Source: Escherichia phage VB-EcoM-WM. Taken from it: 64,000 nucleotides of DNA. Within the stretch, counting starts at the first letter, position 1. Each line of letters opens with the position of its first letter. This document shows, in pieces, positions 53,161 to 53,520 of this stretch. The DNA is taken from sequence record PQ014731.1. One strand, written 5' to 3'. The position numbers were made by a program, and so were the translations under genes. Below the pieces are notes generated by a model, which ran no database searches, was not told the DNA's origin, and saw only the letters and a list, made by a program, of their open reading frames with translations.

Positions 53161-53520
53161 GTCGGCCCTTCATTGGCACTCGCCTACGGGGGGCGAGATG
53201 CCGGGCCTCCATAGTGCACACAATAACAGGAGTGCATACATGCAGGACTGTTAACATGTGTGGGAGCGAAGCGATAGCGCAGGCAAAAGGCCGAGCACTG
53301 ATGTGGACCACCGACGAAAGCTTGCCAGCGTCGTAAGGAGTCGGTTGAGAGTCTCCCGCGCGAGCTTGGATGAAGTTTATGTGTGGAAACGGACAAGAAG
53401 GCCCCTAAATCGCTCCACAGCTGTGTAAACTATATCAGGTAAGGCAATCGCACCAGTTTGATAGAAAAGCTCGTTACAAAGCGATACAGTGAGTTTTTCT
53501 ATAACTTGAAGAGGAGGCGG
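53161..53520. other. GC-rich ORF-less island, candidate structured RNA
   Basis: Strong local hairpins; only antisense ORFs without RBS. Confidence 0.25.

Follow-up and report, generated by a model that had tools for sequence, protein, structure and literature searches.

What does a GC-rich stretch of 360 bases, apparently free of genes, do in the early region of a lytic phage genome? The stretch lies in Escherichia phage VB-EcoM-WM (PQ014731.1), of which we analysed a single window of 64,000 nucleotides (64 kb). The surrounding 2.2 kb match Escherichia phages FV3 and rV5 and numerous further Vequintavirus genomes at 96-98% identity, and by its sequence the window is that of an rV5-like Vequintavirus. 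E. coli phage collections commonly contain such phages, O157 typing phages among them. An earlier note on this DNA had described an ORF-less island of distinctly high GC with several strong hairpins, and had read it either as a structured non-coding RNA or as a decayed remnant of acquired DNA. As checks it proposed an Rfam covariance search and a comparison of related genomes for compensatory base changes.

The composition and position of the island were as described. In 200-nt windows, GC is 0.475-0.545 over 53100-53499, against 0.325-0.36 over 52900-53199 just upstream and about 0.42 for the whole window; the 300-nt bin 53101-53400, with a GC of 0.50, ranks within the top 4 of 213 bins. Repeats and an AT-rich stretch lie directly 5' of the island, and the SD-preceded ATG of the next gene (53523) lies directly 3'. 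The boundaries given earlier, 53161-53520, also proved accurate: in an alignment with two diverged relatives, the IMG/VR contig L003 and the Logan contig L005, whose downstream protein is just 81% identical, the 5' edge of conservation falls exactly at 53161 (GTCGGCCC), and conservation continues to the start codon. The claim of strong hairpins stood only in part. Helices of 16, 6 and 15 bp are indeed present, but the folding energy of the whole island is within chance (MFE z = -1.8 for the + strand and -2.1 for the - strand), and hairpin strength by itself is for this reason weak evidence. The features on which the argument draws are the following.

52511-52861, + strand: 116-aa winged-helix protein, phrog_12838 'replication initiation protein' (E = 1.3e-75)
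52933-53160, no strand: repeats and AT-rich stretch, outside the element
53161-53522, + strand: whole conserved non-coding element; 5' part (about 53161-53416) common with plasmids, 3' part (53441-53522) phage-specific
53164-53207, + strand: H1, 16-bp interrupted hairpin, GGCCC / GGCA-CTCGCCT ... GGGCGAG-A-TGCC / GGGCC
53217-53262, + strand: P2, hairpin CACACA-TAACAG-TGCA ... TGCA-CTGTTA-TGTGTG with a variable tip (MFE and RNAalifold)
53257-53264, + strand: TGTGTGGG motif, 8/10 bases of rrn boxC UCUGUGUGGG
53310-53345, + strand: S1, 6-bp helix ACCGAC (53310-53315) / GTCGGT (53340-53345)
53352-53362, + strand: TCTCCCGCGCG block, nearly invariant in phages and plasmids
53402-53416, + strand: CCCCTAAATCGC motif, common with plasmids
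53461-53502, + strand: 3' hairpin, 15 bp, 12-nt loop, U-rich 3' arm; phage-specific, nearly invariant
53523-54101, + strand: 192-aa protein, phrog_12226, without Pfam match; GAGGAGG SD and ATG

Could the island nevertheless code for protein? It is kept in all 118 of the 118 Vequintavirus phage records that share the region, at 89-96% identity. Compared with L005, its 5' part is 80% and its last 82 nt 89% identical, whereas the flanking genes reach 82-84% and the segment upstream 44%; the sequence upstream of 53161 is wholly different in both L003 and L005. We looked among the relatives for a protein-coding signature, that is, a conserved frame with third-position variation, and it was absent from + and - frames alike. 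There are short ORFs only, none of them conserved among relatives. In the longest + frame (56 codons) the variable columns divide 20/24/22 by codon phase, and this frame is shifted in the diverged relatives; in the longest - frame they divide 22/22/23, and most phages have an in-frame stop. The relatives' islands are separated by indels of 1, 3 and 18 nt. Given the 1-nt indels, the in-frame stops and the flat variation over codon phases, we conclude from the alignments that the island does not code for protein.

The same comparison bears on the idea that the island is a decayed remnant or pseudogene, or else an unannotated small-protein gene. Its GC is unlike that of its surroundings, some GenBank records annotate small hypothetical CDSs in the region, and an SD-like AAGGAG stands 4 nt before a 27-codon UUG frame, all of which would suit such an origin. 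Against it stand the presence of the island in every relative at the level of identity of its flanking genes, the sharp edge of conservation, the lack of codon periodicity or of any residual coding frame, and the fact that its sole E. coli match is non-coding DNA of 13.5-kb plasmids. With conservation in all relatives, gene-level identity, indels and flat codon phases, the sequences make a remnant or pseudogene untenable, and remnant and small gene together retain hardly any probability.

The plasmids merit a closer description. A sensitive search matched two blocks of the island, with an identity of about 84%, to non-coding sequence in circular E. coli plasmids of 13.2-13.7 kb, of which NZ_CP020521.1 is an example (one record being an assembled trimer), and metagenomes supplied two further plasmid-type copies. 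Identical blocks of 14-26 bp are common to phage and plasmids, although the replicons are otherwise unrelated; the only other likeness of the plasmids to the window is two short matches to a separate non-coding region, and these fall within an ORF-poor region at 9650-12000. The plasmids encode HK97-type capsid, tape-measure, Dit-like, tail-completion and helix-turn-helix proteins and a weakly O-like protein of 303 aa; of the 15 annotated genes, eight of them scanned, none was recognised as coding for a terminase or portal. About 37% of their sequence is non-coding, as calculated from summed annotated CDS lengths. Their order of features is that of the phage: a helix-turn-helix gene, palindromic repeats, an AT-rich stretch with GATC, the structured element and rightward genes. 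The palindromic repeats differ from those of the phage and from plasmid to plasmid, but their relative position is the same. The shared part of the island, consisting of H1 and the core, is kept although the downstream genes differ entirely between phage and plasmids, and the plasmids enlarge the element in a modular fashion with stable tetraloop hairpins (UUCG, UACG and GAAA loops).

With phage and plasmid versions in hand, compensatory base changes could be sought as the note had proposed, and five were found between phage and plasmid, three in S1 and two in H1. The S1 helix, ACCGAC/GTCGGT in phages, reads GCTGCC/GGCAGC in five variants of the plasmids, so that three of its six pairs are changed on both sides, and three phages carry a G-U intermediate. 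It is 100% paired across 19 distinct sequences, against 11-54% in slid controls, and none of 500 shuffles matched the observed score. S1 encloses a loop of 24 nt, GAAAGCTTGCCAGCG(T/C)CG(T/G)AAGGA (as RNA, GAAAGCUUGCCAGCG(U/C)CG(U/G)AAGGA), which is invariant across phages and plasmids save for the two positions given in brackets; the exception is L030, the most divergent plasmid, which carries an unrelated 7-bp hairpin at the site of S1. In H1, the phage has GGCA/TGCC and CTCGCC/GGCGAG where plasmid L013 has GTCA/TGAC and CTCTCC/GGAGAG, with two pairs changed on both sides (G-C to U-A); 99% of its cells are paired, as opposed to 32-52% in slid controls. Few independent events lie behind these decisive changes, because there is one deep split only, that between phage and plasmid, and covariation among the phages by themselves is below significance, there being too little variation. 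The compensatory changes in S1 and H1 nonetheless support, at the level of sequence, a structured RNA.

Other pairings are conserved without being changed on both sides to the same extent. P2 is 95-97% paired, with only A-U to G-U changes; in O157tp5, Murica, A147 and C2 an 18-nt deletion trims its tip and leaves a perfect 8-bp stem, CACACATG/CATGTGTG. The 3' hairpin is 99% paired and includes three G-U pairs, its changes being G-U to G-C and C-G to U-G. A gap of 8 nt separates it from the SD (53511-53517) that serves the gene at 53523. As an intrinsic terminator it was not called in a scan of 52400-55400; it has few G-C pairs, and its U-run lies inside the 3' arm. Within the core, a candidate closing helix joins CTCCCGCGC with GTGTGGGAG, and all three core types have GUGUGGG/CCCGCGC in their MFE folds. 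A candidate pseudoknot pairs TCC (53354-53356) with the GGA of the S1 loop and is 98% paired, with no covariation. The candidate helix P3, which would join CGCTCC (53411-53416) to GGAGCG (53263-53268), is 89% paired and shows one double change, in phage B9-1; we consider it weak. P3, the closing helix, the pseudoknot and a further UGUGGA/UCCACA helix compete with one another, and none of the competing set firmly covaries. The element also contains two invariant palindromes, AAGCUU and CGCGCG.

Is the conserved object RNA or DNA? One DNA-based account would make the island a recognition site in duplex form, for example a terminase pac site that a satellite copied from its helper. The identical 14-26-bp blocks in unrelated replicons would fit, as would plasmids which, like a satellite, have capsid and tail genes and, in the annotation and scans above, no recognised terminase or portal; a terminase gene lies about 4.5 kb downstream in L005. 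Yet in a duplex site one would not expect five pair changes, all perfectly compensatory, or the exchange of one domain for another that is again a hairpin, or an asymmetry of folding between strands, and the helper-satellite relationship is itself a hypothesis. We consider a duplex site very improbable. In the phage version and four plasmid versions, folding favours the + strand over the - strand by 10-30 kcal/mol, and the + strand has as many G-U pairs or more. Where a helix is substituted on one side only, the change is mostly from A-U or G-C to G-U, as in a plasmid helix where ACUCACA, ACUCAUA and AUUCAUA face a constant UGUGAGU. These changes point to the + strand, because the other strand would be left with A-C mismatches. 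Together, the G-U pairs, the UNCG- and GNRA-type loops and the better folding of the + strand favour RNA over DNA, although a folded displaced DNA strand of the same polarity may serve as an alternative to RNA. The first reading of the earlier note, a structured non-coding RNA, thus gained support from the two-helix compensatory changes, the G-U-preserving substitutions, the RNA-type tetraloops and the strand asymmetry, and we infer that the island is probably a functional + strand RNA.

If so, it belongs to no catalogued family. An Rfam 15 covariance search of 52850-55050 gave no match to the island at the gathering threshold, and at E <= 10 it returned just rli43 and three snoRNAs, at 14-19 bits against gathering thresholds of 35-100. 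The homologous plasmid regions likewise had no Rfam match, and the ROOL and GOLLD covariance models gave no island match even at E <= 10. A resemblance to RNase P RNA or tmRNA, suspected by eye, was dropped after yielding no model match and no tmRNA call. An IMG/VR search for distant relatives returned one contig only; genome scans gave none and then 12 chance matches without nhmmer confirmation, and a metagenome scan gave six loci, all of them rV5-like phages or the 13.5-kb element. The syntenic regions near the phosphoesterase genes of three related phages, a Seunavirus, a Phapecoctavirus and Klebsiella phage Iguana, contain no island homolog. In a search of E. coli genomes and plasmids the chromosome had no similarity to the island, and the matches were limited to non-coding plasmid DNA. 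Literature searches turned up nothing on the element or the 13.5-kb plasmids; in the 2013 rV5 genome paper the element goes unmentioned and the replication origin could not be defined (PMC3606486). In the 64-kb window, as in each plasmid, the island is single-copy by nhmmer, with no trusted paralog; a weak match at 12682-12859 (E = 4e-4, low posterior support) was not trusted. A second GC island was rejected as a paralog, the two sharing only 9-nt chance matches; 44 nt of that second island are 93-95% identical to about 580 T4-like phages. As far as the sequences searched can tell, the island matches no catalogued RNA family, and its distribution is confined to rV5-like phages and the 13.5-kb phage-like plasmids.

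The genomic surroundings of the island offer a different role. It lies in a rightward early region and has the same orientation as its neighbours on either side. The genes upstream encode an RNA ligase, a kinase, a phosphoesterase and the 116-aa winged-helix protein, the last of which has in addition weak Pfam matches to HTH_36 and DUF6945, below the curated cut-offs. Four repeats of 21-22 bp follow at 52933-53018, spaced at 21, 21 and 22 bp and each with the internal dyad TGTCCG-N6-CGGACA, and after them the AT-rich stretch, where an inverted repeat contains two GATC sites; GC over 53000-53199 is 0.325. This module is swapped for unrelated sequence in L003 and L005, and the boundary of the exchange is the edge of the island. 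The layout of an iteron-type origin, with helically phased repeats, an AT-rich region and an adjoining initiator gene, is present upstream of the island and not inside it. Downstream, the family of the 192-aa protein is restricted to Vequintavirus among GenBank phages, and contig L004 has a 49%-identical homolog with no island upstream. Small genes and a second GC-rich gap come next, and then a cluster of six tRNAs from 55399, 1.9 kb past the island. Two further features lie on this side, an odd 99-nt tRNA-like gene at 55868-55966 and a group I intron at 58393-58617.

Does the island, then, belong to a replication origin? The initiator-like 116-aa protein, bound to the four iterons, would open the AT-rich stretch, and the island would either be a displaced + strand, folded as a single-strand initiation, primosome or primase site, or specify a structured transcript that activates or primes replication. 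The four dyad repeats lie two helical turns apart, directly upstream together with the AT-rich GATC stretch, in a layout resembling that of the lambda origin. The protein family is named for replication initiation, and the module-exchange boundary coincides exactly with the island edge. The plasmids keep the order of palindromic repeats, AT-rich GATC stretch and element, and have the weakly O-like protein. A minimum of cumulative GC skew and a switch of transcription direction are found about 1.6 kb upstream of the island (cf. PMC3606486). However, the plasmid loops are of RNA type and the helices have many G-U pairs, which are ill-suited to DNA because G-T mismatches would destabilise them. 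A phage database search found no sequence similarity between the island and the origin regions of G4 or phiX174, and in Klebsiella phage Iguana an initiator homolog stands beside an AT-rich, GATC-containing stretch without such an island. The palindromic repeats could equally be operators. We regard the origin reading, with both of its variants counted together, as unlikely but still a serious rival.

A further observation leads away from the repeats and towards transcription. The TGTGTGGG motif at the 3' end of P2 recalls UCUGUGUGGG, the boxC of enterobacterial rRNA leaders, which contributes to the leader-trailer helix (PMC10250234). In the plasmid homologs the element contains the boxC 10-mer exactly, in sense orientation. 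The exact 10-mer is also present, again in sense, in the leader of the plasmid capsid operon, 3' of a consensus promoter; that UGUGUGGG hairpins should also be found there, away from the repeats, counts against an origin. The UGUGUGGG box is present 8 times in the window, where 1.8 are expected, and 10 times in one 13.7-kb plasmid, where 0.3 are expected. Within the 64-kb window, the ORF-poor region at 9650-12000 (2.3 kb) has five CTCTTCAGG boxes and one exact boxC 10-mer. In the island, the box has two predicted alternative partners, CACACA upstream (forming P2) and CCCGCGC downstream. The latter pairing is predicted by the core MFE folds and shows no covariation because both strands are invariant. 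The rrn boxA is UGCUCUUUA (PMC2724277), and we looked for it 18-19 nt 5' of boxC; near the island there is no GCTCTTTAA within one mismatch. The best boxA candidate of the island, ACUGUUAACA, adjoins the box and is not a good boxA, while the plasmids have a boxA-like hairpin arm, CUCUUUA, about 10 nt before UGUGUGUGGG. The rrn boxC is itself dispensable for antitermination (PMC2724277, PMC10250234). We treat the boxC likeness as a lead, by analogy, towards an rrn-, nut- or put-like function of the transcript, and not as a claim of membership.

How, then, might such an RNA act? Between 52476 and 53885 a scan called no sigma-70 promoter or terminator. As there is none between the island and its neighbours, the RNA would be carried on the rightward early transcript. 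We considered a sigma-70 promoter with a transcription start at 53161 and rejected it, as it is poor in phages and absent in the plasmid and in L003 and L005. The best explanation as a whole, to which we assign somewhat short of an even chance, is a structured + strand RNA, of a family outside Rfam, that serves as a cis-acting leader on the rightward early transcript. Its architecture would comprise the 5' hairpin H1, the variable P2 with UGUGUGGG as its 3' strand, and a multi-helix core with the S1 loop and the CUCCCGCGCG strand; in the phage version the A-tract/U-tract hairpin, which hardly varies, would come after the core, with 8 nt between it and the next gene's SD. The mechanism proposed for the leader is more tentative, and we would put it well below an even chance. 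The UGUGUGGG strand would switch between CACACA upstream and CCCGCGC downstream, with the S1 loop as docking site for a factor, and the outcome would control the amount of transcription or translation that passes the 3' hairpin into the gene at 53523 and continues towards the tRNA cluster. In this the element would resemble the rrn, nut and put leaders, through which long transcripts without translation come to resist termination. Counting against this explanation, there is no convincing promoter or 5'-end signal at 53161, and leader function does not explain the iteron-like repeats beside the element in both replicon types.

The same RNA could alternatively be a stable, stand-alone molecule, cut from the early transcript and acting in trans; its invariant loops would bind a protein of host or phage, or let the RNA assemble with itself. 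Analogues would be ROOL and GOLLD, and the stable RNAs C and D of the T4 tRNA region. This reading would account for the retention of H1 and the core in two replicons with entirely different downstream genes, for the near-invariance of the 24-nt loop and the CUCCCGCGCG block, and for the modular expansion in plasmids; the AAGCUU and CGCGCG palindromes could mediate self-association, and the tRNA cluster is only 1.9 kb away. In the plasmids, moreover, sigma-70-like promoters (10-11/12) stand between the element and the downstream ORFs, so that the element there need not belong to the downstream mRNA. Yet no promoter or terminator of its own was called, the ROOL and GOLLD models are unmatched and the island is half their size or less, conservation runs unbroken into the SD of the next gene, and the shared position beside repeats and an AT-rich stretch in both replicons is left unexplained. 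A trans-acting RNA seems to us unlikely, if worth keeping in mind.

It is tempting to speculate on why phage and plasmids share the element. The 13.5-kb plasmids might be satellites of rV5-like phages, and the shared RNA element a handle into a step controlled by the helper, either antitermination or the start of replication. We think this quite improbable, but if it were true, some phage regulator would act on the island in cis, and no RNA signal known before would be common to a lytic helper and its satellite. In rV5-like phages the region is at present annotated as nothing or as tiny hypothetical proteins. If it is a functional RNA, an uncatalogued structured RNA family would be added in a well-studied and genetically tractable host, for which phages, plasmids and nus, rho and rnc mutants can be had. 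It would link a lytic phage genus to little-noticed phage-like plasmids with an unusually large non-coding fraction, a link that may expose a helper-satellite relationship or a common handling of long untranslated transcripts. If instead the island is linked to an origin, it would mark the replication origin of the genus, which was not located in the 2013 rV5 paper (PMC3606486).

Among known systems, the rrn leaders would share with the element a long, untranslated, structured transcript with the G/U box UCUGUGUGGG (exact in the plasmids, 8/10 in the island), predicted to form one strand of a long-range helix around a folded domain, and in the plasmids with CUCUUUA upstream. They differ in that a consensus boxA (UGCUCUUUA) with the 18-19-nt spacing is missing from the island, which has no other similarity to the chromosome, and in that the enclosed domain is about 90 nt and not rRNA. 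The lambda nut and HK022 put sites are likewise RNAs of early transcripts that act in cis on RNA polymerase whatever genes follow, and lambda nut also has a boxA and a GU-rich boxC (PMC2724277). The island is much larger than either and has no sequence or model match to them, and neither a boxB-like hairpin nor an N-like protein was identified for it. Nucleic acids associated with origins, such as ColE1 RNA II and the ssi or primosome sites of RSF1010 and pAMbeta1, are comparable in being hairpin-rich, strand-specific and placed beside iterons and an AT-rich region. In RSF1010 or pAMbeta1, ssi/primosome assembly sites adjoin iterons, and the pAMbeta1-type origin has a nearby ssiA; ColE1-type replicons, to our knowledge, have neither initiator nor iterons. 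The island has no sequence similarity to these, and its RNA-type loops and G-U pairs are unsuited to a DNA hairpin. ROOL and GOLLD, finally, are large ornate RNAs of phages and prophages, often near tRNA genes. Like them, the island is a phage-borne, protein-free, multi-helix RNA-like element near a tRNA cluster, with peripheral hairpins that vary in modular fashion; but their models do not match it, they measure about 580-800 nt against about 260-360 nt, and the island has an enterobacterial host and abuts a module of repeats and AT-rich sequence. The most apt description of the island is that of a new family of structured RNAs whose general kind, phage leader or ornate RNAs, is known and whose distribution is unusual.

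The conserved non-coding element at 53161-53522 (+), the first GC-rich island, contains an SD-like AAGGAG within the invariant loop of its helix S1, and a UUG placed 4 nt further on opens a 27-codon frame (motif and frame together, 53335-53428). This frame is not conserved, being frameshifted in L005, a diverged phage relative, and absent from the plasmids that carry partial homologs of the island. The GGAG of the S1 loop could also pair with CUCC at 53353-53356, forming an SD/anti-SD-like contact in cis. Examination of the rest of the window revealed the following features:

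9650-12000, ORF-poor region of 2.3 kb
52933-53160, four dyad repeats of 21-22 bp, set in helical phase, and after them an AT-rich stretch
54690-54935, second GC-rich ORF-less island
55868-55966, tRNA-like gene of 99 nt (Rfam tRNA model, 37.5 bits)
58393-58617, group I intron (Rfam RF00028, 92.7 bits, E = 1.7e-22)

The repeat module lies immediately upstream of the first island and adjoins a gene for phrog_12838, annotated as 'replication initiation protein'. Two GATC sites fall within an inverted repeat of 10 bp in its AT-rich stretch, and the overall layout is origin-like (or operator-like). The entire module is replaced by unrelated sequence in both diverged relatives, L003 and L005. The two GC-rich islands share no sequence similarity; the second is found at 92% identity in L005. 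Within it, a 44-nt segment (54786-54829) is 93-95% identical to about 580 records of T4-like phages; in T4 itself, the counterpart is unannotated DNA directly downstream of denV. The 3' end of this island (54907-54935) reads as a near-consensus promoter, TTGACA-17-TAAAAT. The tRNA-like gene received no assignment from ARAGORN, which reported a four-base anticodon, 'atcc', and its GenBank relatives are labelled tRNA-Lys or tRNA-OTHER; the gene may contain an insertion or an intron. The group I intron is positioned downstream of the tRNA cluster.

Some database records call for comment. Under the name 'Campylobacter phage', the phage database lists eighteen MG0656xx entries that are Vequintavirus genomes and match the present region of the E. 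coli phage at 90-96% identity. The host labels of this set look doubtful; at least two entries carry the flag UNVERIFIED. In the E. coli 'plasmid' CP057073.1 the island is present at 96.7% identity; the length of this record (137.5 kb) matches that of an rV5-like phage genome, and it is therefore probably such a phage. A weak nhmmer match of the island profile to 12682-12859 (E = 4e-4, low posterior probability), spanning profile positions 170-323 and including GCAATCG..CACCAG..AGAAAAG, is probably due to chance.

The circular E. coli 'plasmids' of about 13.5 kb form a family comprising L015 (NZ_CP020521.1, whole record), L014, L016, L018 and L028-L030. They encode HK97-type capsid, tape-measure, Dit-like, tail-completion and HTH proteins, and no terminase or portal was recognised (15 annotated genes, eight scanned). 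The capsid protein is without a close relative in sequenced phages, showing 22% identity to 140-150-kb myoviruses. About 37% of the plasmid DNA is non-coding, with abundant tetraloop hairpins and TGTGTGGG boxes. This family may represent a phage satellite.

The ORF-poor region probably corresponds to the 'non-coding' box in the paper on the rV5 genome (PMC3606486). Its positions 10958-10982 (25 nt) are 96% identical to all five plasmid variants, and the boxC 10-mer of rrn leaders, TCTGTGTGGG, occurs in exact form at 11087. Five CTCTTCAGG boxes, against 0.5 expected, are found on its + strand, and one of these reads CGCTCTTCA, which resembles lambda boxA.
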